Assembly: GCA_963708335.1 (NCBI GenBank)
Contig: OY970205.1
Span: forward strand, 1,756,676 to 1,820,675
DNA: 64,000 nt
Direction: 5' to 3'
Origin: an uncultured Acidobacteriaceae bacterium
GTDB lineage: Bacteria > Acidobacteriota > Terriglobia > Terriglobales > Acidobacteriaceae
The stretch's first letter is position 1. Every line of letters starts with the position of its first letter. The notes beneath the pieces were generated by a model. That model saw only the letters and a list, made by a program, of their open reading frames with translations. It did no database searches and was not told where the DNA came from. Made by a program: the position numbers and the translations under genes. This document shows, piece by piece, positions 21,941 through 50,522 of this stretch.

Positions 21941-21961
21941 CGCCGGCATTTGCGGTCCAGC

Positions 21962-32592: not shown

Positions 32593-34548
32593 ATGGGGGC
32601 ATCACGGGGCGCCTACAAATCAATTGTGGTGCTGGCCTTGGCATTTTTCGGAATGCGGGGGCTTGCGCAGGTTTCCGAGGGGACGCATAGTCCTCACGAA
32701 AACCTGAACATTCCCTGTCAGAATTGCCACACGGCGAACGCGTGGAAGCCGATTCGCGCGGTTCCTGAATTCGATCACAATCAAACGAAGTATCCGTTGC
32801 GCGGCATGCACCAAGCGGTGACGTGCGTCCAATGCCACGTCAAGCCCGTGTTCACGAACGTCGGACAGCGCTGTCAGGACTGCCACGCCGATATTCACCG
32901 GCGTCAGCTCGGGGCGAGTTGCGAACAATGCCACACCGTTCGGGGCTGGCAAGTCACGGTGCAGGCTATCCAACAGCATAACAATCGGTTTCCGCTGACG
33001 GGAGCGCACGCCGCAGTGGACTGCGACTCCTGTCATAAGGGCGCAGCCACCAGCCAGTTTCAATCGATGTCGACGGCGTGTTACTCCTGCCACGCGGCAG
33101 ATTTCAAGGGGACCTCCAACCCGAGCCACGTCTCGGGCGGGTTCTCCACGACGTGCAGCCTCTGCCACGGGACGGACACCTGGCTGAACGCGACTTTCGA
33201 CCATTCGTCGGTTGGATTTCCTCTGAGCGGGGGCCATGCCGTACCGCCGCGCATGTGCGCCGATTGCCACATCAACAATAATTACAACTTGTCCAGCACG
33301 GCTTGCGTGAGCTGCCACCTCAAGGACTATCAGGGAACCACCAATCCGAATCACGTGGCCGCTAGTTTTTCGCAGACTTGCAATCAATGCCACAACACCA
33401 CATCGTGGTCGAACGCGTCGTTTAACCACAACGCGACCAACTTTCCGCTGACGGGCATGCACACGGTGCCTCCGCGGCAGTGCATCGATTGCCACGTCAA
33501 CAATAATTACAACCTCACGAGCACAGCGTGCGTCACCTGCCATTTGAAGGATTACCAGGGAACGACGAATCCCAATCACGTGACGTCGAACTTCCCGCAA
33601 GGCTGCGATCAGTGCCACAACACGAGCTCATGGCTGAATGCGACTTTTAACCACAACAGCACCGGACTTCCGCTAACCGGCATGCACACGGTGCCGCCAC
33701 GGCAATGCACCGATTGCCACGTCAACAATAATTACAACCTCACGAGCACGGCGTGCGTCACATGCCATTTGAAGGACTATCAGGGAACGAACAATCCCAG
33801 CCACGTGGCGTCGAACTTCCCGCAGACCTGCGATCAGTGCCACAACACGAGTTCATGGCTGAATGCGACCTTCAATCACAACAGCACCGGATTTCCTCTG
33901 ACCGGCTCGCACACGGTGCCACCCCGGCAGTGCACGGATTGCCACGTCAACAACAACTACAACCTGACCAGCACAGCGTGCGTGACGTGCCACCAAAATG
34001 ATTACAACGGCACGACCAACCCCGCGCACGCGGCCGCGGGATTCCCCACGACTTGCGAATTGTGCCACGACACCACGGTCTGGACCGACTCGACCTTCAA
34101 CCACAACAACACCGCCTTCCCCCTGACCGGTTCACATTTGGTGCCTCCGCGGGTTTGCGCTGACTGTCACGTCAACAACAACTACACGACGCTGCCTACG
34201 ACTTGCATCGGCTGCCACCAGACCGACTACAACAACACCACCAACCCGGGCCACTCTGCGCAACCGCAGTTCTTCCCCACGACCTGCCAGAATTGCCACA
34301 ACACAACCGCATGGACGGGCGCGACCTTTAACCATACGCAGTACACGCAATTTCCAACCAGCCATGGCAACGCGGGTGGCGTGTGTTCGACGTGTCATAT
34401 CAACTCCAACAACTACGCGATTTTCCAGTGCACGGGCTGCCATGGCGGCAATAACGCAAACAACTTCCATCACGACAACGTTTCTGGATATGTCTACAAC
34501 AGCATCAACTGCTACCAATGCCATCAGAGCGGTCATGGCGGGGGTTAA
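32593..34548 (+). CDS. secreted multihaem cytochrome c, 25 CxxCH motifs, internally repetitive
   Basis: 651 aa, signal peptide IVVLALAFFGMRGLAQV. I counted 25 CxxCH motifs. Built from about six trihaem modules of 75-78 aa. Asn/Thr-rich. Confidence 0.9.
   Translation: MGASRGAYKSIVVLALAFFGMRGLAQVSEGTHSPHENLNIPCQNCHTANAWKPIRAVPEFDHNQTKYPLRGMHQAVTCVQCHVKPVFTNVGQRCQDCHADIHRRQLGASCEQCHTVRGWQVTVQAIQQHNNRFPLTGAHAAVDCDSCHKGAATSQFQSMSTACYSCHAADFKGTSNPSHVSGGFSTTCSLCHGTDTWLNATFDHSSVGFPLSGGHAVPPRMCADCHINNNYNLSSTACVSCHLKDYQGTTNPNHVAASFSQTCNQCHNTTSWSNASFNHNATNFPLTGMHTVPPRQCIDCHVNNNYNLTSTACVTCHLKDYQGTTNPNHVTSNFPQGCDQCHNTSSWLNATFNHNSTGLPLTGMHTVPPRQCTDCHVNNNYNLTSTACVTCHLKDYQGTNNPSHVASNFPQTCDQCHNTSSWLNATFNHNSTGFPLTGSHTVPPRQCTDCHVNNNYNLTSTACVTCHQNDYNGTTNPAHAAAGFPTTCELCHDTTVWTDSTFNHNNTAFPLTGSHLVPPRVCADCHVNNNYTTLPTTCIGCHQTDYNNTTNPGHSAQPQFFPTTCQNCHNTTAWTGATFNHTQYTQFPTSHGNAGGVCSTCHINSNNYAIFQCTGCHGGNNANNFHHDNVSGYVYNSINCYQCHQSGHGGG
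33256..34155 (+). repeat. in-frame tandem repeat, 4 x 225 bp (trihaem module)
   Basis: The first Cys codon of each module falls at 33256, 33481, 33706 and 33931 (and 34156), exactly 225 bp apart. Units 2 and 3 are roughly nine-tenths identical at the DNA level by eye. Diverged units flank the array (33022-33255, 34156-~34390). Confidence 0.85.
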
Positions 34549-34613
34549 AGTCGGGCCTTCCAGAGACGCGGGGGCGACAGCCGGTCAGGTAGACCAGCGA
34601 GAGTCAACAACAC

Positions 34614-37124: not shown

Positions 37125-37948
37125 TCCATTCAGTTCAACCCCTCCGGAAAGGAATGCGCCTGGCACTGGTTCTTCTCGCCTGTGCTACATCTGCCCTGTG
37201 CTTAGCCGGCGCCAGTTCCGCGTCTCCAGAAGAACAGAAGTTGAACAGCCTCTTGGGACGCACGGCCGAGCAGACGGCAGTATTCCTCGATCAATTCGCA
37301 GACGTAAAGTGCACCGAGCAAGTACGCCAGGAGAAACTGGGCAAGGACAGCAAAGTGGAACTTAAGGAAGACTCCACTTATGACTACCTAGTCATCCTGA
37401 CGAATGCCGGGGGCGAACTGAATCTCTCGGAATCACGGATCCCCGTTCGTGAGGCGAAGCGGGACCGGCGCAATACTCCTATGCTGCTAAGCAACGGCTT
37501 CGCAACCCTGTTCCTTATTTTCCATCCTTATTATTCGGCTGCCTTCAAGTTCACCCTCGCCGGCGAGGAAGTCATTGGAGGCCTGACTCTGGAAAAAGTC
37601 CGCTTCGAGCACATCACAGGCATGAAATCGCCGGCGGCGCTTGCCCTGCGCGGAAGGGAGTATCCTCTTGAACTTTCAGGGATGGCGTGGGTCGACGCGC
37701 AGACTGGTTCAATCGCCAAAATCGAGGCCGGCATCGCAGACTCGCTCGCCGATGTCGGGATGAAATCGCTGGACTCCGAGATCGATTTTGCGCCGGTATC
37801 GTTCGCTGGGTCGAAGACAGCCTACTGGTTTCCGATCCAGGCGCGCGTAGAGGTCGAAACTCCCAGGCAGCACTGGCGTAACTTGCACCAATTTACCGCA
37901 TACAAGAGATTCTCAGTAACTACGGAAGAGCAGGTCACCACGAAATGA
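37121..37948 (+). CDS. secreted hypothetical protein
   Basis: The start overlaps the upstream stop (ATGA). Signal peptide MRLALVLLACATSALCLAGA. No domain recognised. Confidence 0.55.
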   Translation: MIHSVQPLRKGMRLALVLLACATSALCLAGASSASPEEQKLNSLLGRTAEQTAVFLDQFADVKCTEQVRQEKLGKDSKVELKEDSTYDYLVILTNAGGELNLSESRIPVREAKRDRRNTPMLLSNGFATLFLIFHPYYSAAFKFTLAGEEVIGGLTLEKVRFEHITGMKSPAALALRGREYPLELSGMAWVDAQTGSIAKIEAGIADSLADVGMKSLDSEIDFAPVSFAGSKTAYWFPIQARVEVETPRQHWRNLHQFTAYKRFSVTTEEQVTTK

Positions 37949-38898
37949 GCGCGAACGCCACCGCCACCGCACGTATAGTCGCCGGCGCCAAAACCGGCCC
38001 GGACTCCGAGCGCGGGCATAAGCTCCGCCTCCGCGCCTTGTACATGCTTGCTTTTGCCACGAACCTCGCGATCTTTATCTACGGCTTCGACTACTACAAA
38101 CTGTCGGCCATCGATCGTCCCTTTTCACCGAAGCATCACATGCTCCGCCCCAGCGGCCCGATTGGGCTGTATCTGGGATTCATGGGCGTAGCTTTGTTCG
38201 CTGGCATCTTCCTCTATCCGCTCCGCAAGCACTGGGCGTGGCTGGGGACGAAAGGCAGCACCCGGCATTGGCTCGATATTCATGTGCTGATGGGGCTGAC
38301 CGCGCCGTTCATCATTGCGTTTCACTCCACCCTGAAGTTCAAAGGCATTGCGGGAATGGCTTTCTGGATCATGTTCGCGGTGTCAGCCAGCGGAGTTGTA
38401 GGACGCTATCTCTATGCGCAAATTCCGCGCAAGATGAGCACCGCCGAACTGTCAATGCGGGAAGTCCAGGAGTTGCAAGAAACATTGTCGCAGCAGCTTG
38501 CGGCACAAAACCTTCTTCCTGCGGCCGACTTGCGCGCATTGCTGCGGATGCCGGATGCGAAGATGGTGACGCGCCTTCCCATCGTCGTCGCTTTGGTCTA
38601 TATGATGATTCTCGATGTGGTCCGCGTTTTCCGCGTCGCGCGGTTGCGTCGTCATGCACTCAGTTTCGGCGGGTACATGCAAACCTTGGCGGGATTCCTG
38701 CCTACACGCAATCGTGAGATCGAGAAAGCCATTCATGCGGCGGCGGAAGAAGCCGCGCTTTCCAAGAGAATCCTGTTCCTCTCGCGCTCGCAGAAAGTTT
38801 TTCACCTCTGGCACGTCGTGCATAAGCCGTTCAGCTACGCCTTCGCCGTGCTGGCGCTATTGCACATCGCACTGCAATTTGTTCTGGGATATTTCTGA
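37945..38898 (+). CDS. integral membrane protein with two His-x13-His helix pairs (candidate dihaem b-type electron carrier)
   Basis: The start overlaps the upstream stop (ATGA). About 6 TM. HVLMGLTAPFIIAFH and HKPFSYAFAVLALLH each place two His 14 residues apart inside predicted helices. Confidence 0.5.
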   Translation: MSANATATARIVAGAKTGPDSERGHKLRLRALYMLAFATNLAIFIYGFDYYKLSAIDRPFSPKHHMLRPSGPIGLYLGFMGVALFAGIFLYPLRKHWAWLGTKGSTRHWLDIHVLMGLTAPFIIAFHSTLKFKGIAGMAFWIMFAVSASGVVGRYLYAQIPRKMSTAELSMREVQELQETLSQQLAAQNLLPAADLRALLRMPDAKMVTRLPIVVALVYMMILDVVRVFRVARLRRHALSFGGYMQTLAGFLPTRNREIEKAIHAAAEEAALSKRILFLSRSQKVFHLWHVVHKPFSYAFAVLALLHIALQFVLGYF

Positions 38899-38907
38899 TT
38901 CGACTCC

Positions 38908-40299
38908 ATGGAAACCCTTATCACTTACGGCGTCGGCGGCCTCATTTGCCTCTTCTTTTTAGTCGGCTATCTGAAGCGTCTGAAGAAGGCCGAAGCCCGC
39001 GCCCGCGAGGCCGCCGAAAAAGGCAAGCTCTTTTCCGAAGGACCGAAGGCCCAGCATCCTCATATCGATTCGAACTATTGCATCGGCTGCGGAACCTGCA
39101 CTAGCGTCTGCCCCGAAGGTGACGTACTGGCGATGATTGCGGGCAAGGCGGTCATTGTGAATGGCCACAAGTGCATCGGTCATGGCCTGTGCGCGGATGC
39201 GTGCCCCGTCGGCGCGATCACGATGGTGATGGCCAGCCCGAGCATGGCCGCCGACATGCCCCATCTCACGCCGGAGTACGAGACCACCATCCCGAACCTT
39301 TTTATTGTCGGCGAACTCGGCGGGCTGGCTCTGATCAAGAACGCCGTGAATCAGGGACGCGACTGCGTTGACACGATTGCCGCGCGCCTCAAGACAAGAT
39401 CTGCCCAGGCCATCCCTGGCGTTTACGACGTCTTAATCGTTGGCGCGGGGCCGGCCGGCATCAGCGCGTCGCTGCGCGCCATAGAAAGCAAACTCAATTA
39501 CATCACGCTCGAGCGCGACGAAGTTGGCGGCACGGTCGCCAAGTATCCGCGACAAAAACTCGTGATGACGAGCCCCGTCGAATTTCCCATGTACGGCAAG
39601 TTCAAGAAGTTGCAGCTTTCCAAAGAACACCTGCTGGCCTTCTGGGACATGATTCTGAACCGCGCTGATTTCAATGTGTCGACCGGCGAGAAGGTTGAGG
39701 ACATCACGAAGGACGACAAGGGCATCTTCACGGTCATCTCCGCGACCAATCAGTATCGTGCGCGGTCGGTCATTCTCGGGCTTGGCCGGGCCGGAGAGCC
39801 ACGCAAGCTCGGCGTTAAAGGCGAGCAACTGCCCAAAGTGATGTACCGCTTGATCGAGGCAGATCACTACATCAACAAAAAGATTCTTGTCGTCGGGGGC
39901 GGCGACAGCGCGGTCGAAGCCGCTCTCGGACTCGCCAACCAGACCGGAAACCAGGTGACGCTCTCGTACCGCAGCGAGCGCTTTAGCCGCATCAAGGAAC
40001 GGAATGCCAATCGCGTCGAAGAGTGCATGCGCTCAGGAAAAGTCCGTGTGTTGTTTAATTCCAATCCGGTTGAATTCAAACCCGAATCAGTATCGATCGA
40101 CGTGAACGGCGCCAGACAAGAAATTCCCAATGATTTTGTCTGGATCTTCGCGGGAGGAAATCCACCCACAGCCTTCCTTAAAAAGATCGGCATAGGTTTC
40201 GGAGCTCGCGACCTGACCCTCGAGGCCAGCAGAGAAGCGAAGCAGGCCAATGAAGACCGCAAGCAATTCGCCCAGGCACATGCTGCGCCGGCTCGCTGA
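38908..40299 (+). CDS. membrane-anchored 2x[4Fe-4S] ferredoxin-domain + FAD/NAD(P)-binding oxidoreductase
   Basis: N-terminal TM helix followed by Lys/Arg-rich sequence. CIGCGTCTSVCP and CIGHGLCADACP. DVLIVGAGPAGISA (FAD). ILVVGGGDSAVEAA (NAD(P)). Confidence 0.75.
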   Translation: METLITYGVGGLICLFFLVGYLKRLKKAEARAREAAEKGKLFSEGPKAQHPHIDSNYCIGCGTCTSVCPEGDVLAMIAGKAVIVNGHKCIGHGLCADACPVGAITMVMASPSMAADMPHLTPEYETTIPNLFIVGELGGLALIKNAVNQGRDCVDTIAARLKTRSAQAIPGVYDVLIVGAGPAGISASLRAIESKLNYITLERDEVGGTVAKYPRQKLVMTSPVEFPMYGKFKKLQLSKEHLLAFWDMILNRADFNVSTGEKVEDITKDDKGIFTVISATNQYRARSVILGLGRAGEPRKLGVKGEQLPKVMYRLIEADHYINKKILVVGGGDSAVEAALGLANQTGNQVTLSYRSERFSRIKERNANRVEECMRSGKVRVLFNSNPVEFKPESVSIDVNGARQEIPNDFVWIFAGGNPPTAFLKKIGIGFGARDLTLEASREAKQANEDRKQFAQAHAAPAR

Positions 40300-40754
40300 C
40301 TCCTGCCTCGTTCGGCCACACCGTCGGACTGGCCCTTCGCAGACAAGTCAATGCCTCTGTTCGACAGGTCACTCTCGCACGACTAGGTTCCTCGCAGGCC
40401 GACGTCGTTCCACGTTCGAAGCTCCAGCTCCCCGCGCTTTTCGTCGCTCAGAAACTTTGAGAGTGCAAAGGTGACCGCGAGGACGATCGGTCCGATGAAC
40501 GGTGAAGAATGAATGCTCGCAACCTCGGTCTACACTGCGGAGTTTCGGCATTCGAGATCACCTTATCCAAAAAGGCGTGCATCATGCTGACTGCGACTCC
40601 GCCGACTTTCCCAAGGACGCGGCGAGGATTTCTCAAAGGCATACGCTTGCACGCTGCGCACTCTTAGAAAACGGATCGCAGAATGGGCTAGACGATGCGG
40701 AGCGATGTCTCCCGTACAACCCCAGAAGGACGAAGAAGGCAGAGCGAAACAAGA

Positions 40755-41501
40755 CTAGTTCTCCGCATAGACCGGCCCGGCCTGGCGAGAGGGTGGATCG
40801 GCGACAGCGCGGATATAGGAAATCAGCGCCTGTACATCAGACTTGCTGAGCGTGTTTCCCCAGGCCGGCATGAGGGCCGATTTGTTGAGGGCCGGACCTC
40901 CATAGCTGATGATCGCGGTGAGGTCGGCGTCGCTGATTTTGTTCAGCGTATCTCCTTCGGTGAAGGGGTGAGGCTTGACCTCGAGGTTGTCATAGTTGGA
41001 GACGCGCTCGACCGTAGACTCGGGATTGTGGCAGCGTTCGCAGTATTGATCGTTGAGTCGGCGTCCGAGGGTTTGCTGATAGCCGAGTGCGATCTCTTCT
41101 ATCTTTAATTCCACCTTTCTGTGGGACTTGTCGATCGTCGAGGCGACGAGTTGGTAACGGCCCGCCATGCCTCCGAGAGATACATTGGTCGTGACTTGGC
41201 CGCTGGAGTCGGTAAGCCCGCTGGCGGGATCGAACGTTACCCCGGGGATCGCTGCGAATTCGACTAGAGCTCCGGATACGGCAGCTCCCTGCTCGTCGTT
41301 TACCTGGACTACGACTGGTTGCGGCAACCAGGCGCCGGTCTGCGCGAACTGTTTTCCGCCGCTGGATTCGATGATCGCGGCGCCGAAAGCCGTGGGCTTG
41401 GGCAGAGGTGCGGACTCGGTCTTACGCGAACAGGAAATAGCCAGCGATGTTGCCAGCACCGCGACAACGAAGGTACCGATTGTATGGAAGTGGCGCGTCA
41501 T
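40755..41501 (-). CDS. lipoprotein with Ig-like domain and C-terminal monohaem cytochrome c domain
   Basis: Lipobox-like LAISC. Single CERCH with a distal Met region (ALMPAWG). The start overlaps the upstream stop (ATGA). Confidence 0.7.
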   Translation of the reverse strand: MTRHFHTIGTFVVAVLATSLAISCSRKTESAPLPKPTAFGAAIIESSGGKQFAQTGAWLPQPVVVQVNDEQGAAVSGALVEFAAIPGVTFDPASGLTDSSGQVTTNVSLGGMAGRYQLVASTIDKSHRKVELKIEEIALGYQQTLGRRLNDQYCERCHNPESTVERVSNYDNLEVKPHPFTEGDTLNKISDADLTAIISYGGPALNKSALMPAWGNTLSKSDVQALISYIRAVADPPSRQAGPVYAEN

Positions 41502-43543
41502 TTCTTGGCGACCTCCGGTTTGGCTCCGCCTTTTTGCGAGATCAGAAATGCGGTCAGAGCGCGCGCATCGTCGTCAGTCATGGCGCGGTTCGGCTCCACG
41601 GTACCCGGGCGCAGAGCCTGCGGATTTTTCATCCACTGGTAGATCCAGGCGGCGGTAAGGCGCGAGCCAACCTGCGTCAGCGTGGGGCCGATGTAGCCCT
41701 TGTCTGTCTTGGTGTCGAGGATGTGGCATCCCTGGCAGGAATACTTGCCATAGAACAGTTGCTTCCCGAGTTCCACCTCGCCTTGGGAGTAGCCGCTCAA
41801 CGGCATGGAGTCGCGATCAACTGACGGATTCTGATACACGGTCATGATGTAGTCGGTGAGTTCGTTGATTTCGGAATCGGTCAGGTTGAAGCGTGGCATG
41901 CGGCGAATCAGCGCCGGACGCAGCGTTCCTGGATTCTTGAAAAACTGCACCAGCCACTCGCGCTGGACGGAACTGCCTTCCCAGGTCAGGTCCGGCGCCA
42001 TGTCGCCACCGCGCCCGTTGATGCGATGGCAACTGAAGCAGGCTAAGTCAGACATCAGTTTCCCGGCTTTGCCGGCAGGCTGGTAATCCGACTCGGGGAC
42101 TGCGGCAACAGCCAGGGATGCTGGCAAAGTAGTCGAACGCTCGTTCAGAGCCAGCAACGCTGTGGTCAGTGCATCGATCTGCGTCGGCGTGAAGCTGTAT
42201 TGCGGCATTCGCAGGTTCGGCGAAAATGCCCGTGGTTCTTTGATTTTGCCCGCAAGGTAATCGGGAAGGGTGTGCGGCATCCCGGGCAGAAAAATGAGCT
42301 GGGTAATCGACTTGCTGCCAATGCGGCTGAGTTCCGGAGCGAAGTTTTCCGGCTTCTTGATTCCGGCGATTTCGTGGCAGGAGGCGCAGCCATAGTCCGA
42401 TACGAGGCGCTTGCCGTGCGCGATCTGCTCGGGAGTAGCCGCATCCAAGTGAACGTTGGCAAGGAGATCGGAATCCGCCTTCGCGAGAAGGAATCCGGAT
42501 AAGGTCGCGACCTGCGGATCGTTGAAGCGATAGTGCGGCATCGCCGTGCCGGGATCGTATACGCGCGGATTTTTCAGCCAGCCTTGCAGCCACTCCGGCT
42601 TCACTTTGCTGCCAATGCGCGTCAGTTCCGGACCAACATCACCACCAACCACGTTCCCCGCCGCATTCTGCACAGCGTGGCACGAGGCGCAAAAGGATTC
42701 ACCATAAAGGCTGGGGCCGGCAGTAGGATCAGCGGCGGGCTTGCCGGAGAGACTGGCAGAGTCTCCCGGCACGGCCGTGCTATTGGCGACCAGGAAAGCG
42801 GAGATGTCGCGCGCATCGTCGTCACTCAACTTGAAATTCGGCATCGTGGCGCTGACCGCATAGGCTCGCGGATCTTTCAGCCACGCGTAAATCCACTCTC
42901 GCGTGGTCTTGTCGGCAATGTGCGAAAGAGAGGGCGCATCGTCACTGGCTTTGAGCGTGCTGCCATCGGGCAGTTTCACCGTATGACAGTTGACACAACC
43001 GTAGCGAGAGAGCAGGTTGCGTCCCTGATTGAGAACAGGAGTTCCTGGCAACGGACCGCGGTGGCATTCCCCACAGGAAGACTCGATGTATTTGGCCGGA
43101 AGAATGGGCTGCTCCCAGGCGAGCGTACTGTTATGCGCTTCAGATACGGTAGTCGCAGCGCCCTGCCCGCGATGACACACGGTGCAGCCGAACTGGTCGA
43201 GCTTGTGCGGAATCACGGGATGAGTGCGGAAGGGTTGGGTAGAAACATCGGTAAGACTGGGTTCCTTCAGTCCGACGTGGCAACTGGTGCAGCGGTCCAC
43301 GACTCCAAGTTCTGGAAGCCAGATCTGCTGAATCCCTGGCTTGAAGTGCCTCTGCAGGGTGTTGGCCTCGCTGCGGTTGCGAATCGTCTTCAGATACCCG
43401 TGCTGATAGTGGCGCCACTCGCTGAAAAAGTTCTTCGCGGGAGCGATCGCCAGCGATGCGAGAAAAATGACGCTGATCACACCGAAGGCGCGCACGCTGT
43501 CGCCGAATAACTTATGCCATATCGATGTGAATTTCTGTCTCAT
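41498..43543 (-). CDS. membrane-anchored octahaem cytochrome c (4 N-terminal haems + 4 class-I-like domains)
   Basis: TM helix FGVISVIFLASLAIAP. 8 CxxCH (CTSCH, CTVCH, CGECH, CVNCH, CASCH x2, CFSCH, CQGCH). ATG 43543 is preferred over GTG 43606, which would overlap the upstream gene by 44 nt. Confidence 0.8.
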   Translation of the reverse strand: MRQKFTSIWHKLFGDSVRAFGVISVIFLASLAIAPAKNFFSEWRHYQHGYLKTIRNRSEANTLQRHFKPGIQQIWLPELGVVDRCTSCHVGLKEPSLTDVSTQPFRTHPVIPHKLDQFGCTVCHRGQGAATTVSEAHNSTLAWEQPILPAKYIESSCGECHRGPLPGTPVLNQGRNLLSRYGCVNCHTVKLPDGSTLKASDDAPSLSHIADKTTREWIYAWLKDPRAYAVSATMPNFKLSDDDARDISAFLVANSTAVPGDSASLSGKPAADPTAGPSLYGESFCASCHAVQNAAGNVVGGDVGPELTRIGSKVKPEWLQGWLKNPRVYDPGTAMPHYRFNDPQVATLSGFLLAKADSDLLANVHLDAATPEQIAHGKRLVSDYGCASCHEIAGIKKPENFAPELSRIGSKSITQLIFLPGMPHTLPDYLAGKIKEPRAFSPNLRMPQYSFTPTQIDALTTALLALNERSTTLPASLAVAAVPESDYQPAGKAGKLMSDLACFSCHRINGRGGDMAPDLTWEGSSVQREWLVQFFKNPGTLRPALIRRMPRFNLTDSEINELTDYIMTVYQNPSVDRDSMPLSGYSQGEVELGKQLFYGKYSCQGCHILDTKTDKGYIGPTLTQVGSRLTAAWIYQWMKNPQALRPGTVEPNRAMTDDDARALTAFLISQKGGAKPEVAKK

Positions 43544-43562
43544 GTCTGCTGCATCCTTGTCC

Positions 43563-44270
43563 TTAAGACCCCTGCCACGGCCATATCCACGACCAACCCG
43601 GACCACGGAAAAATGTGCCGATGGCAGTAAGCACGATGAGTTCGAATAAAAACCAGGTCATCACCCAATACGAAAGCGGTCGCGCGACCAGATACCGCCG
43701 GAAGCCTGAAATCGATTGGGGAGAGCTATACGCTGCAACAAGCATCACCGCGCCCATGATCACAGTCGGAACTAGGGCCGCGTAGACTTTGAAAAAAAGC
43801 AGGAATAGTGAAAGAAGAATCGCCACGCCATAGAAAATGCGCAGGCGGCGCTGGCGGTCTTTCAGGAATAGTCCATCGGCCTCGATATTGACTTTGAAGT
43901 AAGGAATGACAATCAACGCCATGACGACAAGTCCGGGCGCAAGCACGCCCGCAACCACCGGCGGAAAATAATGCAGCATCTCCTGCAGGCCGAGAAAGTA
44001 CCACGGCGCTTTTGCGGGATTCGGCGTGTGCGAAGGGTCAGCCAGGCCTTCGAGCGGAGCGTTAAAGATCAGCGCAATCCAAACCAGGGCGACGGCCAGC
44101 GTCATCACCGCAACCGCCGCGCGGAATAGCACCTCGGGAAAAGTCTGGACCTGGTCTTCGGTCTCGGCCTTCACCTGCGCCGAGGTGCGCCGCGTGACGA
44201 AGACAATCCGTCGCGGAGATTTCTTCGCGTTCGAGTCGATGCCGGCGATGAAGTCCTTGGACTCTGCCAT
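43563..44270 (-). CDS. cytochrome b C-terminal (subunit IV-like) membrane protein
   Basis: PNPAKAPWYFLGLQEMLHYFP (PEWY-type Qo-site motif region). Multiple TM helices. The start overlaps the cytochrome b stop (TAATG). Confidence 0.7.
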   Translation of the reverse strand: MAESKDFIAGIDSNAKKSPRRIVFVTRRTSAQVKAETEDQVQTFPEVLFRAAVAVMTLAVALVWIALIFNAPLEGLADPSHTPNPAKAPWYFLGLQEMLHYFPPVVAGVLAPGLVVMALIVIPYFKVNIEADGLFLKDRQRRLRIFYGVAILLSLFLLFFKVYAALVPTVIMGAVMLVAAYSSPQSISGFRRYLVARPLSYWVMTWFLFELIVLTAIGTFFRGPGWSWIWPWQGS

Positions 44271-45058
44271 TACTGCGCTCCCTTCTCATTTCGTGCGGCA
44301 GCTTCGGCTCGCACGACGGCAGGTTCGCTCGCATGCGAGTACAGTCCACCATCTTTGCGAATCCGCCAGAAATGGATGGCGACGAAGAACAATGCAGCGA
44401 GCGGAAGGATCATGCAGTGCAGCACGTAGAAACGCAGCAGCGCGTTGGCGTTGACCGCGTTTCCACCCAGCAGGAGAAAGTGGATCTTTTCGCCCATCAC
44501 TGGAACCGCCGATGCAATGTTCGATCCCACCGTAATTGCCCAATACGCCAGTTGATCCCAGGGAAGCAGGTAGCCGGTGTAGCTGAGCAGCAGAGTAATG
44601 AGAAGCAGGACAACTCCGATCACCCAATTGAATTCGCGAGGCGGCCGGTATGCGCCGCGGTAGAACACCTTGAACATGTGCGCGAACACCAGAAACACCA
44701 TGGCGTGCGCGGACCAGCGATGCAGGTTGCGTAGAAATAATCCAGAGGAGACTACGAACTGCAGGTCTTTCGTGTCGGCGTAAGCCTGCGGTACCGACGG
44801 GTGATAGTAGAACATCAGCGGAATCCCGGTCGCGACCAGGATGAGAAATGTGCCGAGCGTCAGCGTGCCCAGATACCAGGTCGCGCTGAAACTCAGCATG
44901 CGCGTGCGCACCTTGGTGGAAAACAGATGCAGGAACACATTCTGCTGAATGGCCAGGGAGCGCTTTAGAGTGCTCGAACCGACGCCGCTGCGGAAGATCG
45001 AGCGCCACACTCGTGTTTCGCGCAGATCGTTGAAGTATTGGTCTGCTGTTTTCGCCAT
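44270..45058 (-). CDS. cytochrome b (b6-type N-terminal four-helix haem domain)
   Basis: [15 protein letters not shown] (His-x13-His) and [16 protein letters not shown] (His-x14-His). WFRSIH-like N-terminus. LPWDQLAYW. Confidence 0.85.
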
Positions 45059-45060
45059 GC

Positions 45061-45558
45061 TTAAACCCTCACGAACTGCATAGGCGGGATGTCGGTGGAA
45101 CGGTCCACCAGCAAGTCTCCGTCGTCATTGAGCCACATGCGCTTCCACGGCAGCGGCTTGGGCGCGGGACCCTCGATTTTGTCGCCTGGTTTGTGATTGC
45201 CCTGCTGCTGAACGTAGAACTTGCTGCCGTGACAGGGGCACGCGATGATGCCCAATTCCGGCTTCCACGCTGTCAGGCAACCTAAATGCGTACACACCGC
45301 GCTGAGCGAGAAATACCCCTCCTGCGAGTGAATAATGAAAATGCCGGTGTTCGCATCAAGCGTGACGGAGTCAAGCGGATAGCGGTCGGGCTTTCCGGCG
45401 TTCACCACCGGAGACGGCTCAAAAAGTACATTCGGCTCGAGGTATTGATACGCGAACGCCGCCGTGCCGGCGGCGGCAATGCTTAACGAGCCGAGCCCGA
45501 GTTTCAGAAAGAATTGACGGCGGTTGACATCGTCAGTCGGTTTTGGTTCCTCTGCCAT
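45061..45558 (-). CDS. Rieske [2Fe-2S] protein with Tat signal
   Basis: [13 protein letters not shown] twin-Arg leader. CTHLGC ... CPCHGS. Confidence 0.9.
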
Positions 45559-45570
45559 ATTGCCTCGCGC

Positions 45571-47526
45571 CTACTTCTGCAATCCCGCGCCGATGGATGC
45601 CACCGAAATCAATCCGGTCGGCTCCGCCGGGATCAGGTTGTATGACTCCATAGTGATGGTGCCCACGGGACAGCGCATGGCGCACAGTCCGCAGCGAATG
45701 CACCGGGTCTCGTCCTTCAGCATGGCCGCGCCCGTAACCACTCCCAGTTCGTCGGCTTTAATTTCATCGAACTCCACGCCGAATAATTCCTGATTGTCGC
45801 GGATGTGCTGCACAGTCTCTGGCTCGAACGAAATCCGATCGAGCGAAACCAGTTCCAGACATTTTTCCGGGCAGACATCTACGCATCCACCGCACAGAAT
45901 GCACATGCTGCCGTCTTCCGGAACGCCTTCAAAAATTGTGTTGACCCAGCAGCGCAGGCAGCGCTGTGCCTCAGCCACGGCGCTGGCCGCGTCATACCCG
46001 ATTTCAACTTCGGTAACGCCTGTGCGCCGCTCGAGCGGAAGCATGGGAACCGGTTGACGGTTGAGGTCGAGGTAGCCGAGTGGCATGGAATGCCGTTTGA
46101 GTAGTTCGACTTCGATTACCGGTTCCGGATGCTTCCCTCCGCGGAGGTATTCATCGATGCCCACCGCCGCACGCTTGCCGTCGCCGACGCTGTCAATAAT
46201 CAGGCGCGGTCCAAACACACAATCGCCTCCGGCGAAAATTCCCGGCGCGGACGTCATCAAAGTCTGGGGATTCACGGCGATAAGACCGCGCGGAGAGAGT
46301 TCCACCTTGTCTTCCGGCGTGAAGAAATCCAACCGCGGCGCCTGCCCGATCGCCATGATGATCGTGTCGCACTCGATCTGCGTCTCGCTGTTTTCGTAAA
46401 ACGCCGGATTGAAGCGCTTGTTCTGGTCAAAGACCCACTTGGTCTTGAGAGTTTCGAGAGCTGTGACCTTGCCGTCTTTGCCCAAAATCCTCTTCGGCCC
46501 TTGCCCCGGAAGCATCTTGATGCCCTCTTCTTCGGCCTCGACGATCTCTTCGAGGGCGGCGGGCATTTCATCGCGCCGCTCCAGGCAGACCAGGTTCACC
46601 TCGCGCGCTCCCATGCGCAAAGCCGAGAGCGAGATGTCAACCATTTCCCTCGTAGCCACGGCGGAGACATTGTCCGCGGAGGGCTCCAATTCCTCCACGC
46701 CGCCGGCATGTTGCCTGACCACTTCGCGTGCCGCCGAGCGCGCCACATCCATGGCAACGTTGCCACCGCCGATCACGATGACTTTTTTCCCGATGGTGAA
46801 TTTGTAGCCCAGGTTCACGTTCAGCAGAAAATCGATGCCCTTGTGAACGCCGTCCAGATCGACTCCGGGAATGCTGAGATCGCGGCTGCGATGAGCGCCC
46901 ACCGCAACCAGTACCGCATCGAATCCCTCGTGTCGCAGATCCGAGATGCTGAAGTCCCGTCCGGCGGCATGATTCAACTTGAGGGTGATGTCCCCGGTTT
47001 CGAGAATCTCGCGGACTTGCGCCTCCACTACGTCGCGCGGCAGGCGATATTCCGGAATCCCCAGATAAAGCATTCCTCCGGCAACCGGAGCTGCTTCGAA
47101 GATCGTCACCGCGTAACCCATCAAGGCGAGATCATGAGCCGCCGAAAGTCCAACCGGGCCACCGCCCACTACCGCAACTTTGTAAGGAAGTTTCTTCTGC
47201 GTGCGTCCTTCATTGACGTTGATGGGACGCTTCGACTCGGGGCCGTACTGCTCGGTAAGAAAGCGTTTCAGCGCTCGGATCGAGATGGGACGGTCGATTT
47301 CGCCGCGGCGGCAGGCGGTCTCACAGGGATGCGCACACACGCGTCCGCAGATACTAGCCAGCGGATTCGGATCACGTGCCAGGCGATAGGCTTCTTCGAA
47401 GCGTCCCTCCGCAATCAGGCCCACGTACCGCCCGGCGTTGGTGTGAGCCGGGCAGGCCATCATGCAGGGAAAGTTTGTGTGCAGCCAGTCCCCGTCAACC
47501 TTCTTGTCTTTGAATCGCTTCAGCAT
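45571..47526 (-). CDS. GltD-like (glutamate synthase small-subunit-type) NAD(P)H/FAD oxidoreductase with N-terminal Fe-S Cys clusters and C-terminal 2x[4Fe-4S] ferredoxin domain
   Basis: FPCMMACPAH ... CGRVCAHPCETAC. VAVVGGGPVGLSAAHDL. VIVIGGGNVAMDVA. CILCGGCVDVCP and CIRCGLCAMRCP. ATG 47526 is preferred over the 47637 start. Confidence 0.8.
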   Translation of the reverse strand: MLKRFKDKKVDGDWLHTNFPCMMACPAHTNAGRYVGLIAEGRFEEAYRLARDPNPLASICGRVCAHPCETACRRGEIDRPISIRALKRFLTEQYGPESKRPINVNEGRTQKKLPYKVAVVGGGPVGLSAAHDLALMGYAVTIFEAAPVAGGMLYLGIPEYRLPRDVVEAQVREILETGDITLKLNHAAGRDFSISDLRHEGFDAVLVAVGAHRSRDLSIPGVDLDGVHKGIDFLLNVNLGYKFTIGKKVIVIGGGNVAMDVARSAAREVVRQHAGGVEELEPSADNVSAVATREMVDISLSALRMGAREVNLVCLERRDEMPAALEEIVEAEEEGIKMLPGQGPKRILGKDGKVTALETLKTKWVFDQNKRFNPAFYENSETQIECDTIIMAIGQAPRLDFFTPEDKVELSPRGLIAVNPQTLMTSAPGIFAGGDCVFGPRLIIDSVGDGKRAAVGIDEYLRGGKHPEPVIEVELLKRHSMPLGYLDLNRQPVPMLPLERRTGVTEVEIGYDAASAVAEAQRCLRCWVNTIFEGVPEDGSMCILCGGCVDVCPEKCLELVSLDRISFEPETVQHIRDNQELFGVEFDEIKADELGVVTGAAMLKDETRCIRCGLCAMRCPVGTITMESYNLIPAEPTGLISVASIGAGLQK

Positions 47527-47653
47527 GCACGGCGTTTCCAATCTCGAAACAGCGGCTGAACGTCCACCTCGGTTTGCAGTACAAGAGCGATACGGATTCG
47601 AGGAGCAGTGCCCCAAGCGCAACTGCTCCCCTGTCACCCCGGACGAGATGCAG

Positions 47654-48235
47654 TTACTTCGTCAGGGTGAAATCCGCTTTCCCGCCGCCGGCTACGGTGA
47701 CGGGCTTCGACTGGTTCTTCGCCCCTTCGTGCCAGACGGTCAGCGTGTAACTTCCGTCGGGAACGTCTTTGATCTTGTAGTTGCCGCTGTCGTCGGTCTC
47801 GGCAAAATAAGGAGTTGGACTGACAATCAGATATCCCGCCATGTCTGGGTGCACATTGCACAGCAGCGGCACAACTCCCGGTTTGTCGAAGGTAAAAGGA
47901 CGCTTTTCACCCTTGGGCCACGTGCCCAGGTTGTGTCCGGCTTTCTTGTCGTTGCCGATCGCCGTCCAAAAAACATTGTGTTGCACCGTGTCGCTATTGA
48001 GGAACTCAACCGTCGTACCCTGTTGCACGACCATGATGTGCGGCACAAACATCAGCCCCTTTTGATCGATCACCGGATGATCTTTGGGTGCGGGAAAAGT
48101 TTTGCCCGCGATCGTGTCCACGTAAACCACGGAGCGGCCCTTCATTCCCGCAACCTTGCCCTCGATGTCGCCGGCGAAAGCCGCGCTGCACAACCCAACG
48201 ATCAAAGCCATCATTACCAATATCTTGCCTTTCAT
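47654..48235 (-). CDS. secreted cupredoxin-like (type-1 copper) protein with C-terminal CarboxypepD_reg-like domain
   Basis: Signal peptide. FVPHIMVVQQGTTVEFLNSDTVQHNV ... LLCNVHPDMAGYLIV. This gives a His ... Cys-x2-His-x2-Met ligand pattern as in amicyanin. The C-terminal GNYKIKDVPDGSYTLTVW is CarboxypepD_reg-like. Confidence 0.65.
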   Translation of the reverse strand: MKGKILVMMALIVGLCSAAFAGDIEGKVAGMKGRSVVYVDTIAGKTFPAPKDHPVIDQKGLMFVPHIMVVQQGTTVEFLNSDTVQHNVFWTAIGNDKKAGHNLGTWPKGEKRPFTFDKPGVVPLLCNVHPDMAGYLIVSPTPYFAETDDSGNYKIKDVPDGSYTLTVWHEGAKNQSKPVTVAGGGKADFTLTK

Positions 48236-48309
48236 TGCGTTATCTCCTTATGAGTTGTCACCAACCGTTGCTGCGTGTGTGTCAGGACATGTTTGTCAGA
48301 ACATGTGTG

Positions 48310-49695
48310 TCAAAAAATGATCTTTGCATCCAGGTAGAAGGTGTTGTTCGAGCTCGCATTGCGGCCAGAACCGTCGTAGTTGTTTTGGGCTCCATTGAAG
48401 CGTGTGTATCCGGTGTATTGCGCAGCGAGCAGCAGATTCTGCCACGGCCAATAGGTAAAGTTCGCAATATAGCCGCTGCCCCTCGGGTCGCCATTGAAGT
48501 TGCCGGTCACTGCGACATTGGGCGAATACAGAGTCGTGTCGGAAGTGCCGGTCGTGCTGAACCACCCGAATGTTCCGGTGTAGCGGTTGCCATAGTGGTA
48601 TTCGGCGTTGGCCATCACAGTGTTCAAATGATGCGCTCCCAACCCCGCCAATTGCGGATTGCCATTGAAGCTCGCTAACAAGTCGGAATTTTCGCGGATG
48701 TACGTGGCTCGAAAAGACAGCACATCCTTTCTGAACAGTGTCCGATCGATCTGAGTGTCAACTCCCCAATCCGTGTACGAATCCTGCCAGGGGAAACTAG
48801 ACCCGTCGGCTTGCGTAATTGCGTTGGGAGTGGATCGCAGGTGCATTCCATAGGTGCCAACTTCATACTGTGTCTTGGCCGTTAGCTGCTGCCATGCCGC
48901 GCGCCAGTACGGCGCAACGCCGCGAATGTTGGTTCCCCCCCCGGGATTCGGTTGAGGGCTCCCCACGTGCTGGGAACGATAAATCGCGGCATCAAAATAA
49001 AGATGGTTGTTCCACATGGCGTACGCGCCTACACCTCCCACATCCTGCGCCAATCCGCCATTGATGATGGGAGAGGCGTTCGGCGTGGGCGCGAAATCGC
49101 TGGCGACCCAGGGATAGCCCCAGGCCGGGGTGCTGTTCCAAAGGTCCTCGACGGTGGGATTGTTGTTGAAATCCAGACCGTAGACCAATTCCTTGCCGCC
49201 CAGCTTCGTCGTGTTCGCGTAGCGGACATCGGTGTTGTCCATGCTGAAGTGGTCATCCTGCGTGTCGTATGTGACCTGAACGAAACTTCCCACATGGCTG
49301 GTCCAGGCACCTGAAAGGAACAGCGAGATATCCTGGGGAAACTCGACATTGCCGTTCTGGGTCGTCGGCTCCGGCGACTTGATAGAGGTGAAGGAAGCGT
49401 CCAGCATCACTGAAAGCGGCAATGAACCCAAAAGCTCCAGCGCAGCCGTCTTTTTGCTTCCATCAGCCTTGATGACTTTTGTGTCATCCGCCTTGTCCAC
49501 GTAGCCCATCAGCTTGAACCTTCGTCCGGCAGGATTGAGTTCCGGAGGAGTGTAGTGACAGCCGCTGCAGGCTAATCCCGTCTGCCGGGCATAGCTGGGA
49601 ACCGCCTCCACCTTAGGTGGATTCAGGGCGACAACAAACAGCAATGCCAGGATCGAAGCGGACATGACCAGAACAATCGCGACTTTTTTCATCAT
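48310..49695 (-). CDS. fused monohaem cytochrome c / outer-membrane beta-barrel protein (Cyc2-like architecture)
   Basis: Signal peptide. Single CSGCH near the N-terminus (YARQTGLACSGCHYTPPELNPAGRRF). About 400 aa of barrel-like sequence ending ...FYLDAKIIF. Confidence 0.6.
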   Translation of the reverse strand: MMKKVAIVLVMSASILALLFVVALNPPKVEAVPSYARQTGLACSGCHYTPPELNPAGRRFKLMGYVDKADDTKVIKADGSKKTAALELLGSLPLSVMLDASFTSIKSPEPTTQNGNVEFPQDISLFLSGAWTSHVGSFVQVTYDTQDDHFSMDNTDVRYANTTKLGGKELVYGLDFNNNPTVEDLWNSTPAWGYPWVASDFAPTPNASPIINGGLAQDVGGVGAYAMWNNHLYFDAAIYRSQHVGSPQPNPGGGTNIRGVAPYWRAAWQQLTAKTQYEVGTYGMHLRSTPNAITQADGSSFPWQDSYTDWGVDTQIDRTLFRKDVLSFRATYIRENSDLLASFNGNPQLAGLGAHHLNTVMANAEYHYGNRYTGTFGWFSTTGTSDTTLYSPNVAVTGNFNGDPRGSGYIANFTYWPWQNLLLAAQYTGYTRFNGAQNNYDGSGRNASSNNTFYLDAKIIF

Positions 49696-49908
49696 GAATC
49701 TCCTGTTTATTTGCTGACTCTCTGTTCTTCGGGAGAAATGTCAGGAGTCTGCACCGCGTGCCGTTCACGATTCATCGAGCAAACATAGCCATGCGAAAGC
49801 GCATTCGAATCGCCTCCCACGTATAGATTTCGAGAGTTTGGAAAACCCTAGTCTTGATCCAAGCTGAGCGTGATAATACCGGCAGTTGTAGACGTCTCGC
49901 GAGGTGTT

Positions 49909-49939
49909 GAATCACATCCGAATGTGATTTGCATCACAC
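49909..49939. promoter_or_regulatory. composite CRP/FNR-family-like operator, copy 1
   Basis: GAATCACATCCGAATGTGATTTGCATCACAC contains TCACA-N6-TGTGA overlapping a perfect TGTGA-N6-TCACA. Lies 214-244 nt upstream of the 49695 start. Confidence 0.4.
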
Positions 49940-50061
49940 TTCGGGTCGTGACGGCGGAGTGGCTCGGATCACCGCATTCGTCATAAAGATCTAGTTTTGG
50001 GGCCTCTTGAGTTCATCTGGACTGGATGCTGCCCAACTGCCACAGAAATCGAAGTGGCGGA

Positions 50062-50092
50062 GAATCACACCGGAATGTGATTAAGCTCACGC
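50062..50092. promoter_or_regulatory. composite CRP/FNR-family-like operator, copy 2
   Basis: GAATCACACCGGAATGTGATTAAGCTCACGC, identical to copy 1 at 24/31 positions, with TGTGA-N6-TCACG. Lies 153 bp from copy 1. Confidence 0.4.
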
Positions 50093-50522
50093 TGCTGGGT
50101 CAGTCATGAGGTTCGGGGGCATTGCTGCAGTTTCCACCTAATTGATTCCTGATAAACGGAACGCCATTTTACCGGGCTGCAAATACTGAAGTCATAGCAC
50201 CCGATGCTTTCCATGCGAGGGAAGCCCGCTTGCCTCGCCCGACTATCTTCCCATCCCCGTCCAACGCTTCCGCTTCGACCGGCCAAGCGTAATACATTGG
50301 AGCCACGCCGCGGTTCTCCATGCGCACGGTGAGTGTGGCCGAGCCATCTGTGTTTCGAACTATTCCATCGCTCGCAGAAGAGTATATAGCCCAACATTCG
50401 CTCGGCATTCAGGGCATTCATTCGCTGTTTGGCGGCGAGCGGTGCAGCAAAGAGATTTGAGTCGAGCAGCCAAGTCGCGTGCGTCGTAATAATCGCGGCA
50501 GTCGCGTCTTGCCCTGGCGGTA

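Follow-up and report, generated by a model that had tools for sequence, protein, structure and literature searches.

The 64,000-nucleotide (nt) stretch of contig OY970205.1 analysed here (hereafter the window; positions 1,756,676 to 1,820,675 of the forward strand, assembly GCA_963708335.1, from an uncultured Acidobacteriaceae bacterium) carries a Rieske/cytochrome b (cyt b) gene cluster in which a flavoprotein resembling GltD and NfnB is encoded directly ahead of the Rieske protein. The cluster comprises eight minus-strand genes at 40755-49695, which form a single conserved respiratory module of about 9.5 kb. Its products are listed below from the upstream end (aa, amino acids; TM, transmembrane; FAD, flavin adenine dinucleotide; NAD, nicotinamide adenine dinucleotide; Fe-S, iron-sulfur).

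48310-49695 (-): putative Cyc2-like fused monohaem cytochrome-porin of the outer membrane, 461 aa; signal peptide, one CSGCH at residue 43
47654-48235 (-): periplasmic type-1 copper protein (cupredoxin) with a C-terminal CarboxypepD_reg-like domain, 193 aa; Pfam Copper-bind and CarboxypepD_reg
45571-47526 (-): cytoplasmic GltD/NfnB-type flavoprotein with FAD, NAD(H) and multiple [4Fe-4S] clusters, 651 aa; Pfam Fer4_20, Pyr_redox_2 and two Fer4
45061-45558 (-): Rieske [2Fe-2S] protein with a twin-arginine leader, 165 aa; Pfam Rieske
44270-45058 (-): b6-type four-helix cyt b, 262 aa; Pfam Cytochrome_B
43563-44270 (-): subunit-IV-like (SUIV-like) membrane protein with the Qo motif, 235 aa; weak Pfam Cytochrom_B_C and NCBIfam ExtQ match
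41498-43543 (-): membrane-anchored octahaem cytochrome c; eight CxxCH, one N-terminal TM segment, Pfam c7/c3-like and class-I cytochrome c domains
40755-41501 (-): lipoprotein with a Big_1 domain and a monohaem class-I cytochrome c, 248 aa; Pfam Big_1 and Cytochrome_CBB3

The genes are tightly packed on one strand. The flavoprotein stop codon ends at 45571 and the Rieske ATG lies at 45558, so that the 12-nt spacing read in an earlier note on this DNA, made from the sequence alone, was recovered exactly. The gap between the Rieske and cyt b genes is 2 nt, the cyt b and SUIV genes overlap by 1 nt, and the stop codon of the octahaem gene overlaps the start of the lipoprotein gene by 4 nt. Two starts deserve comment. 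The flavoprotein is 651 aa long from its ATG, as are most of its homologues, and would be 688 aa from an alternative GTG at 47637; the octahaem open reading frame (ORF) reaches a GTG at 43606, and homologue lengths favour the ATG at 43543 as the likely start. A promoter and terminator scan of 40.2-50.6 kb returned fewer promoter-like sites than shuffled sequences did and no convincing operon boundaries. DNA similarity to the closest genome locus (L003) was 89-92% and was confined to 40676-50154, with flavoproteins 99% identical at the protein level. The module of about 9.5 kb is therefore a discrete conserved unit set in differing flanks.

A flavoprotein linked to Rieske and cyt b genes

The flavoprotein contains two N-terminal Cys clusters (CMMAC at residues 21-25 and CGRVCAHPCETAC at 60-72), dinucleotide-binding motifs at residues 121 (GGGPVG) and 253 (GGGNVA), and two CxxCxxCxxxCP motifs at residues 542-553 and 609-620. 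The earlier note had described the Cys clusters, both CxxCxxCxxxCP motifs and two GxGxxG folds; all of these stood except the second fold, which reads GxGxxA. Neither a TM segment nor a signal peptide was found in the protein. Searches against solved structures gave NfnABC as the best match (9bov/9bp5, 1.6e-92), followed by NfnA and then by NfnB and GltD. The protein shares with the NfnB/GltD/NfnABC family (E 1e-92 to 1e-54 against solved members) an N-terminal domain for two [4Fe-4S] clusters and the FAD and NAD(P) Rossmann domains. It differs by an added C-terminal ferredoxin domain with two further [4Fe-4S] clusters, by the lack of an NfnA or GltB partner, by a Glu in place of Arg-Arg in the 2'-phosphate pocket, and by its predicted partner, which is a membrane haem protein.

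Database relatives of the flavoprotein, whose family is abundant in nature, number more than 8000 at E <= 1e-20. The best 120 were 86-97% identical and came from metagenomes and metagenome-assembled genomes (MAGs); where an organism was named among them, it was Ca. (Candidatus) Sulfotelmatobacter, Terriglobales or Acidobacteriaceae. Family members are labelled 'FAD-dependent oxidoreductase' or, by JGI, 'glutamate synthase beta-like' or 'formate dehydrogenase beta subunit', and genes of the module as a whole currently carry just the first or last of these labels or 'hypothetical protein'. An assignment to GltD in the strict sense was rejected on scores against NCBIfam models (TIGR01318, 249 versus a cut-off of 483; TIGR01317, 202 versus 448; TIGR01316, 304 versus 472). 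The wider assignment to GltD or to a formate dehydrogenase beta subunit was likewise discarded, with model scores under the cut-offs and the partner genes absent from the cluster; gltB was not found in the window cluster or in related loci.

Because GltD-like proteins are so common (23,751 representative clusters at E <= 1e-3), the adjacency of flavoprotein and cyt b genes was tested from both sides. A flavoprotein-anchored scan of one genome per GTDB species, seeded with an alignment of eight sequences, yielded 80 loci, whose ORFs were searched with the window proteins. Rieske and cyt b genes were linked to the flavoprotein in 73 of the 74 loci that had enough downstream DNA to be evaluated. 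In 72 of these 74, the Rieske and cyt b genes followed the flavoprotein gene directly and in that order; L066 (Ardenticatenales) had another order. The sole unlinked flavoprotein was a paralogue (L040) in a MAG that also carries a full cluster. From the other side, a cyt b-anchored set of 80 metagenome contigs (70-95% identity) contained 58 with at least 900 bp upstream, and the flavoprotein gene stood ahead of the Rieske gene in all 58; one contig (L119) had been flagged merely for overlapping ORF calls. Loss of the flavoprotein gene from syntenic loci of close relatives, the observation that the earlier note had singled out as damaging to its proposal, was thus not seen in this set. Pairwise identities of the flavoproteins and of the cyt b proteins correlated with r = 0.95 over 69 loci, a value consistent with inheritance as a unit that vertical descent alone could also yield. 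The adjacency is not a matter of chance, and the linkage is near-obligate across about ten phyla.

These counts bear on an alternative in which the flavoprotein is an independent soluble GltD-like oxidoreductase, of the glutamate-synthase, sulfide-dehydrogenase or formate-dehydrogenase beta type, that is merely co-transcribed with the Rieske and cyt b genes. The JGI labels 'formate dehydrogenase beta subunit' and 'glutamate synthase beta subunit-like' would fit such an enzyme, as would the L040 paralogue, which stands alone without Rieske or cyt b genes. However, the cluster lacks gltB, fdhA or any other catalytic partner, all gltD/GOGAT NCBIfam scores fall far under their cut-offs, and the linkage (73/74 and 58/58) holds across phyla and three gene orders. 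A His motif in cyt b, described below, tracks this linkage, and the subunits of the related Kuenenia complex co-migrate. We consider an independent enzyme very improbable. As for the L040 paralogue itself (9896-11944, MAG MFD01689.bin.1.40), this second flavoprotein copy has 74% identity and no adjoining Rieske or cyt b gene; its second glycine motif is changed to GGGDVA and its NAD-domain helix is altered, and it may be decaying or re-purposed.

Carriers of the linked genes were found in Acidobacteriota (five classes), Ignavibacteriales, Bacteroidota, Eisenbacteria, Krumholzibacteriia, Chloroflexota, Verrucomicrobiota, Calditrichota, Zixibacteria, Kryptoniota and Deltaproteobacteria. Two cluster types could be distinguished. 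Type 1 has the order of the window: Cyc2-like protein, cupredoxin, flavoprotein, Rieske protein, short cyt b, SUIV, a multihaem cytochrome c of about 700 aa, and the Big_1/cytochrome c protein. It occurs in Terriglobia, Bryobacterales, Blastocatellia, Thermoanaerobaculia and Holophagae, the last represented by a cultured isolate (Geothrix campi SG10, locus L060), and also in Ignavibacteriales, one Cytophagia MAG, Eisenbacteria and Krumholzibacteriia. Type 2 consists of the flavoprotein, the Rieske protein, a fused long cyt b (about 430-460 aa, with 420-500 aa across L067-L082) and a multihaem cytochrome c of about 400-460 aa, without a cupredoxin; it was found in Verrucomicrobia, Calditrichaceae, Bacteroidota, Kryptoniota, one deltaproteobacterial MAG and other Acidobacteriota. 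Type-2 loci fall among L067-L082 (for example L073, 9830-15073), and some of their flavoproteins read CxxCNRC, keeping an Arg found in the Kuenenia flavoprotein Kuste4570. In two loci, L028 (4569-6010) and L063, the flavoprotein-linked Rieske and cyt b genes are accompanied, at a distance of a few kb, by another pair of the conventional kind.

The bare co-occurrence of such a flavoprotein with cyt b is already known and not new, and it is reportedly to be credited also to work by Dibrova and colleagues in 2013. According to the accessible text of Dibrova et al. 2017 (PMC5600118), short cyt b proteins of subfamily G co-occur with NAD(P)-binding Fe-S proteins, the tree shows gene proximity 'in many other cases', and a clade G' comprises long cyt b in large conserved operons whose function is there given as not known. 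The premise of the earlier note, that this feature had been highlighted only for anammox bacteria, was in the light of these statements too narrow. As far as the accessible text allows a comparison, subfamily G, which is taxonomically mixed and has mostly short cyt b, and clade G' match our type-1 loci with short cyt b and type-2 loci with long cyt b, respectively, and type 2 probably corresponds to clade G'. Neither the Cyc2-like/cupredoxin module nor the invariant His nor the NADH-type pocket is described in the accessible text. In the literature searched we found no description of the eight-gene Acidobacteriota-type module with its Cyc2-like and cupredoxin genes, nor of the haem-cn cysteine loss, the NADH-type pocket, the His invariance or the occurrence in a cultured isolate. 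Searches for Rieske/cyt b with GltD, for glutamate synthase with Acidobacteria, and for cyc2 with Terriglobia or Geothrix returned no literature on this cluster. The Nitrospina and Methylomirabilis operons that have been called 'the same' as those of Kuenenia are reported without the flavoprotein.

The membrane core and its anammox counterpart

The haem ligands of the window cyt b (H113-x13-H127 and H214-x14-H229) aligned residue for residue with H86, H100, H187 and H202 of b6, and the b6-like spacing noted earlier was thereby confirmed. The core of the protein was 44% identical to b6 of M. laminosus and, over the same region, 59% identical to the Kuenenia cyt b. The Qo motif indeed resides, as the earlier note had it, on a separate SUIV-like protein (43563-44270, 235 aa); it reads NPAKAPWYFLG, with APWY rather than PEWY, and hydropathy alone gives the protein about five hydrophobic segments. 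The Rieske protein carries the motifs CTHLGC and CPCHGSKFY and an NRRQFF leader. Just like Kustd1480, an anammox Rieske protein with a potential of +335 mV, it retains the potential-raising Ser and carries Phe in place of the Tyr. At the position of the haem-cn cysteine (Cys35 of b6, within CxGG), the window cyt b has Tyr62 (WYLGT, versus WCMGG in Kuenenia), and the cysteine was found in the cyt b of none of the 80 non-anammox loci. These proteins therefore have no covalently bound haem cn and no b6f-type Qn site.

Among solved structures, the Rieske protein matched best 9rk4 (7e-21) and 9rk3 (6e-15), which are Kuste4569 and Kustd1480 of the anammox Rieske/cyt b (R/b) complexes (Hauser et al. 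2025), with every b6f Rieske protein ranked lower; cyanobacterial PetC came next (5e-12). The R/b-3 locus of Ca. Kuenenia sp. (L083), recovered via the 9rk4 sequence, served as anammox reference; its genes are arranged as Rieske, flavoprotein, cyt b, SUIV-like, hexahaem and HAO-like octahaem protein. Identity to the Kuenenia R/b-3 subunits was 50% for cyt b (kuste4571 orthologue), 42% for the Rieske protein and 31% for the SUIV-like protein, with an identical Qo motif (NPAKAPWYFLGLQE) in the SUIV-like proteins of both organisms. The flavoprotein was 35% identical to the kuste4570 orthologue and colinear over its full length, including RCLxC and both ferredoxin motifs, and the N-terminal part of the octahaem cytochrome shared 36% identity with the Kuenenia hexahaem subunit in a stretch of 121 aa. 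The window cluster thus shares with R/b-3 (kuste4569-4574) and R/b-2 (kustd1480-1485) a b6-type cyt b with an N-terminal His, an enlarged SUIV-like protein (five TM segments in the Kuenenia models) with an APWY Qo motif, and a GltD/NfnB-like subunit for FAD, NAD(P) and Fe-S clusters that is encoded in the operon; a multihaem cytochrome c apparently takes the place of cyt f. This subunit-by-subunit homology supports the proposal of the earlier note that the locus is a non-planctomycete counterpart of the anammox flavoprotein-containing complexes, and on sequence grounds their core architecture appears to be the same.

The two systems also differ. The flavoprotein gene precedes the Rieske gene in the window and follows it in Kuenenia, and Kuenenia has the haem-cn CxGG cysteine that the window cyt b lacks. 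The Kuenenia hexahaem and HAO-like octahaem proteins are replaced by an octahaem cytochrome with four class-I domains, a monohaem lipoprotein, the cupredoxin and the Cyc2-like porin; no HAO-like protein was found in the window cluster. The host, too, is different: a soil acidobacterium that lives heterotrophically and has no anammoxosome. A further difference concerns the nucleotide pocket. Where strand beta-2 of the NAD(P) Rossmann domain ends, 'LE' was invariant in the flavoproteins of 80/80 non-anammox loci, whereas the Kuenenia flavoprotein and the solved Nfn proteins have Tyr-Arg-Arg ('YRR') at this position, so that the window pocket is of the NADH type and that of Kuenenia of the NADPH type; the NAD domains also differ by an insertion of about 35 aa. 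In the classical Rossmann rule, an acidic residue at this position denotes NAD and an Arg pair NADP. By this rule the invariant Glu predicts NADH/NAD+ specificity, and the nucleotide used in this lineage is probably NAD+ rather than NADP+.

Two better-known complexes resemble the cluster in part. The Geobacter sulfurreducens ExtOPQS system (Cbc6; extHIJKLMNOPQS) likewise combines a Rieske protein, a short cyt b, a small membrane protein, a lipoprotein cytochrome c and a porin with multihaem cytochromes, and the best named NCBIfam models were ExtP for the window cyt b, ExtQ for SUIV and ExtS for part of the octahaem cytochrome. However, the Geobacter cluster is without a flavoprotein (Jahan 2018) and its porin ExtI is not a Cyc2-type cytochrome-porin. 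Identity with the Geobacter Ext cluster was rejected on that missing flavoprotein and on scores below the model cut-offs (ExtP, 259 bits versus 290; ExtQ, 52 versus 150). In common with b6f and the Firmicute b6c complex, the cluster encodes a Rieske protein, a SUIV on its own and a split cyt b with Hx13H/Hx14H spacing, which is 44% identical to b6. It differs from both in lacking cyt f and the haem-cn cysteine, in having APWY instead of PEWY or PDWY, and in its extra N-terminal His motif and cytoplasmic flavoprotein; the 235-aa SUIV-like protein is also larger than the three-helix SUIV of b6f. A canonical b6f complex was rejected for want of a cyt f gene and on Tyr62 for Cys35, APWY and the size of the SUIV-like protein.

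From AlphaFold3 models, Hauser et al. 2025 predicted that His43 of Kuste4571 (His62 in Kustd1481) binds an extra b-type haem where the two cyt b of the dimer meet on the n-side, and that this haem bridges haem bn/cn and the first Fe-S cluster of the flavoprotein. His44 of the window cyt b aligned with His43 of Kuste4571. The Leu-His of the motif N-x-x-L-H-x-x-(P/S)-x-K was invariant in all flavoprotein-linked cyt b (about 78, from type 1, type 2 and Kuenenia), and the two cyt b not linked to a flavoprotein (L028, 5027-6010; L063, 2709-3803) had a canonical N-terminus without it. The invariance of His44 across about 80 loci offers independent comparative support for the structural prediction of 2025. 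In the established topology of b6f, the N-terminus of a b6-type cyt b faces the n-side. Since the flavoprotein lacks both a signal peptide and TM segments, the geometry is consistent with contact between the two on that side.

Proposed electron path and its alternatives

The proteins that would carry electrons away from the Rieske protein belong to the conserved type-1 arrangement. The octahaem cytochrome consists of four N-terminal haems of the bis-His type (the c7/c3-like part) and four class-I domains that resemble SoxX and the cbb3 subunits II/III (CcoO/CcoP). A lipobox (LAISC) and one CERCH mark the lipoprotein, whose gene is a conserved last member of type-1 clusters. The cupredoxin has a signal peptide and the Cu-ligand motif CNVHPDM, and in nearly all type-1 loci its gene comes directly before that of the flavoprotein. 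Neither Pfam nor NCBIfam gave a match for the 461-aa protein. Cyc2 proteins were defined by Keffer et al. 2021 through a signal peptide, a single CXXCH, an upstream AXPXFAR[Q/K][T/Y], a downstream PXL and a length of at least 365 aa. The 461-aa protein conforms to these rules (AVPSYARQTGLACSGCHYTPPEL), with AVPSYARQT (Phe replaced by Tyr) and PEL after the haem motif; its last residue is Phe. Its AlphaFold2 model is of low confidence (mean pLDDT, the predicted per-residue accuracy score, 42.7) and consists almost entirely of long beta-hairpins, with about 16 long strands by DSSP assignment; a C-terminal 16-strand porin barrel is therefore putative. A Cyc2-like gene flanked the cluster in 55 of the 55 loci in which an outer-membrane homologue was found. 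Many of these homologues have the canonical AIPAF(A/S)R(Q/K)Y...CxTCH...FPKLN, and sister loci have AIPAFARKY. Two motif variants (AVPSYARQTGLxCSGCH and AIPAF[AS]R[QK]Y..CxTCH) alternate beside the same Rieske/cyt b cluster in different genomes. The Cyc2-like protein has more than 6000 database relatives, every one of them labelled hypothetical.

These partners raise the possibility of iron-linked reverse electron transport, in which electrons from extracellular Fe(II) would pass through the Cyc2-like protein to the cupredoxin and c-haems and on to the Rieske protein, and the complex would run backwards, the membrane potential driving reduction of menaquinone and/or NAD+. Such a route would be a compact version of the 'uphill' Cyc2-rusticyanin-bc1-NDH1 branch of Acidithiobacillus, whose pet operon also joins bc1 genes and the NAD-binding sdrA. 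It is in keeping with the conservation of the cupredoxin and of a Cyc2-like gene with the family-defining motif in type-1 clusters, and with the peat, bog, palsa and other soils from which many source MAGs came. However, electrons would have to climb about 0.6 V from cupredoxin or cytochrome c to NAD+, in addition to the membrane potential, and a coupling device is not evident. Autotrophic iron oxidation is not known from the hosts, one of which, Geothrix, reduces Fe(III). Moreover, most type-2 clusters (Verrucomicrobia, Kryptoniota and others) lack the cupredoxin and Cyc2-like genes yet keep the flavoprotein. We therefore regard this route as rather improbable.

We favour a different reading, at a probability of roughly 55% with the direction included: electron bifurcation at the Qo site, starting from menaquinol and reducing NAD+, a reaction of the kind proposed for anammox bacteria by Kartal et al. 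2013, in which NAD(P)+ is reduced instead of a quinone at the Qn site. The core would be a b6-type Rieske/cyt b complex to whose cytoplasmic side the soluble FAD/Fe-S flavoprotein, with its NAD(H) site, is attached. The SUIV-like protein (with APWY), the Rieske protein and cyt b would together form the Qo site at which menaquinol is oxidised. From the Rieske protein, the high-potential electron would pass to the membrane-anchored octahaem cytochrome c, to the monohaem lipoprotein cytochrome c or the cupredoxin, and finally to a terminal oxidase or to the Cyc2-like outer-membrane cytochrome-porin. The low-potential electron would pass from haem bp (H113/H214) to haem bn (H127/H229), to an extra haem b held between the two His44 of the dimer, through four or five Fe-S clusters (among them two [4Fe-4S] of the ferredoxin type and two of the GltD type) to FAD and finally to NAD+. 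Haem cn would take no part. The chain is probably reversible, and its physiological direction is the weakest step of the argument.

Besides the motifs, the packing and linkage of the genes, the subunit homology and the His44 signature set out above, two features favour bifurcation. The first is the absence of haem cn and of a Qn site. The second concerns potentials. Terriglobia use menaquinone, as is known from chemotaxonomy. Given a Rieske protein with the Ser and Phe of Kustd1480 in menaquinone hosts, a mismatch between Rieske and quinone potentials as in Kuenenia is therefore expected. Hauser et al. 2025 use this mismatch to argue for a very low-potential b branch and NAD(P)+ reduction.

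Several points weigh against bifurcation to NAD+. Both the physical association of the flavoprotein with cyt b and the direction of catalysis are matters that we infer, and the NADH preference is drawn from one Rossmann-fold rule applied to sequences. The extra haem itself is an AlphaFold3 prediction made for Kuenenia only, and in the sequence comparison the specificity of His44 rests on just two unlinked cyt b proteins, with Geobacter ExtP outside it. The Arg of Kuste4570 (R511, in CGRC), said to face the propionates of the extra haem (Hauser 2025), corresponds to a Gly (CGGC) in the type-1 flavoproteins. Most hosts are organoheterotrophs without an obvious need for quinol-driven NAD+ reduction, and the reaction comes near the thermodynamic limit once the membrane potential is included.

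The nature of the hosts and the nucleotide pocket bring up the most serious competitor, a built-in NADH dehydrogenase. Here the flavoprotein would oxidise NADH and pass electrons along the Fe-S chain and the extra haem to haem bn and a quinone site on the n-side. The module would then be an NADH:cytochrome c/cupredoxin oxidoreductase and would in essence follow the Q cycle as Mitchell first proposed it, in which a dehydrogenase is the second donor at centre N. That the carriers (Terriglobia, Geothrix, Ignavibacteria, Verrucomicrobia) are organoheterotrophs speaks for it, as does the invariant beta-2 Glu, which predicts the catabolic carrier NADH where the anammox YRR is of the NADPH type. It is also established that GltD-type subunits normally send electrons from NAD(P)H into Fe-S chains. 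In its accessible text, Dibrova 2017 (PMC5600118) discusses dehydrogenase-anchored ancestors and Mitchell's donor 'd'. However, haem cn, the CxGG motif and a recognisable Qn site are all absent, electrons entering at the n-side haem would compete with those derived from Qo, and the combination of a high-potential-type Rieske protein with menaquinone is better explained by a need for a very low-potential b branch. On balance we think a built-in dehydrogenase unlikely, and continue with bifurcation to NAD+ as the preferred reading.

In heterotrophs, bifurcation might supply NADH when H2, CO or succinate feeds the quinone pool; alternatively, the low-potential electron might be recycled via complex I. 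Both roles are speculative. In a broader form, which we put forward tentatively and hold to be doubtful, these loci would define a large, so far overlooked class of complex III without a Q cycle, in which the low-potential electron from Qo would reach NAD+ through a fifth haem b at the dimer interface and an Fe-S wire, while the high-potential electron would enter a cupredoxin/cytochrome c chain genetically tied to a Cyc2-type iron redox protein of the outer membrane; the class would be abundant in soil Acidobacteriota and span at least ten phyla. Were this true, heterotrophs and trace-gas scavengers would have a route from quinol to NADH independent of complex I, and extracellular iron chemistry would be tied directly to the pyridine-nucleotide pool. 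The conserved association with Cyc2-like and cupredoxin genes suggests that in Acidobacteriota of peat and soil the NAD(H) pool is linked in this way to iron chemistry or to redox chemistry outside the cell.

Ever since the Kuenenia genome, it has been debated what Rieske/cyt b complexes with a flavoprotein do. Their function has so far been hard to test because anammox bacteria, to our knowledge, offer neither a pure culture nor genetic tractability. The same core in very abundant soil bacteria and in at least one cultured isolate (Geothrix campi SG10) provides a tractable system for the hypothesis of bifurcation to NAD(P)+ and for the extra haem b.

Surroundings of the module

A gene set resembling those for extracellular electron transfer lies at 30182-40299 on the plus strand, convergent with the module, and has no syntenic counterpart in L003. 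Besides the genes listed here, it holds two ORFs without Pfam matches.

30182-32215 and 32593-34548 (+): large multihaem cytochromes of about 650-680 aa; c7/c3 repeats, MtrC-like domain
34614-37124 (+): AMIN-domain protein, 836 aa
38908-40299 (+): TM-anchored flavoprotein with two [4Fe-4S] clusters and a Pyr_redox_3 domain, 463 aa

A homologue of the 463-aa TM-anchored flavoprotein occurs near the cluster in L023, and not in most loci. Regulatory genes and a mobile element are found farther away in the window.

4674-6143 and 20303-21940 (+): sensor kinases with putative metal- or gas-sensing membrane domains (MHYT repeat; ethylene-receptor-like ETR1_N with PAS)
21950-22588 and 23276-24121: LuxR-type response regulators
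489-1667 (-): IS481-family transposase with rve and HTH domains

The transposase near the window start, together with a similarity to L003 that is limited to the module (40676-50154), fits a rearranged neighbourhood. The rest of the window encodes a glycogen phosphorylase, a phosphoketolase, stress proteins and two-component systems.

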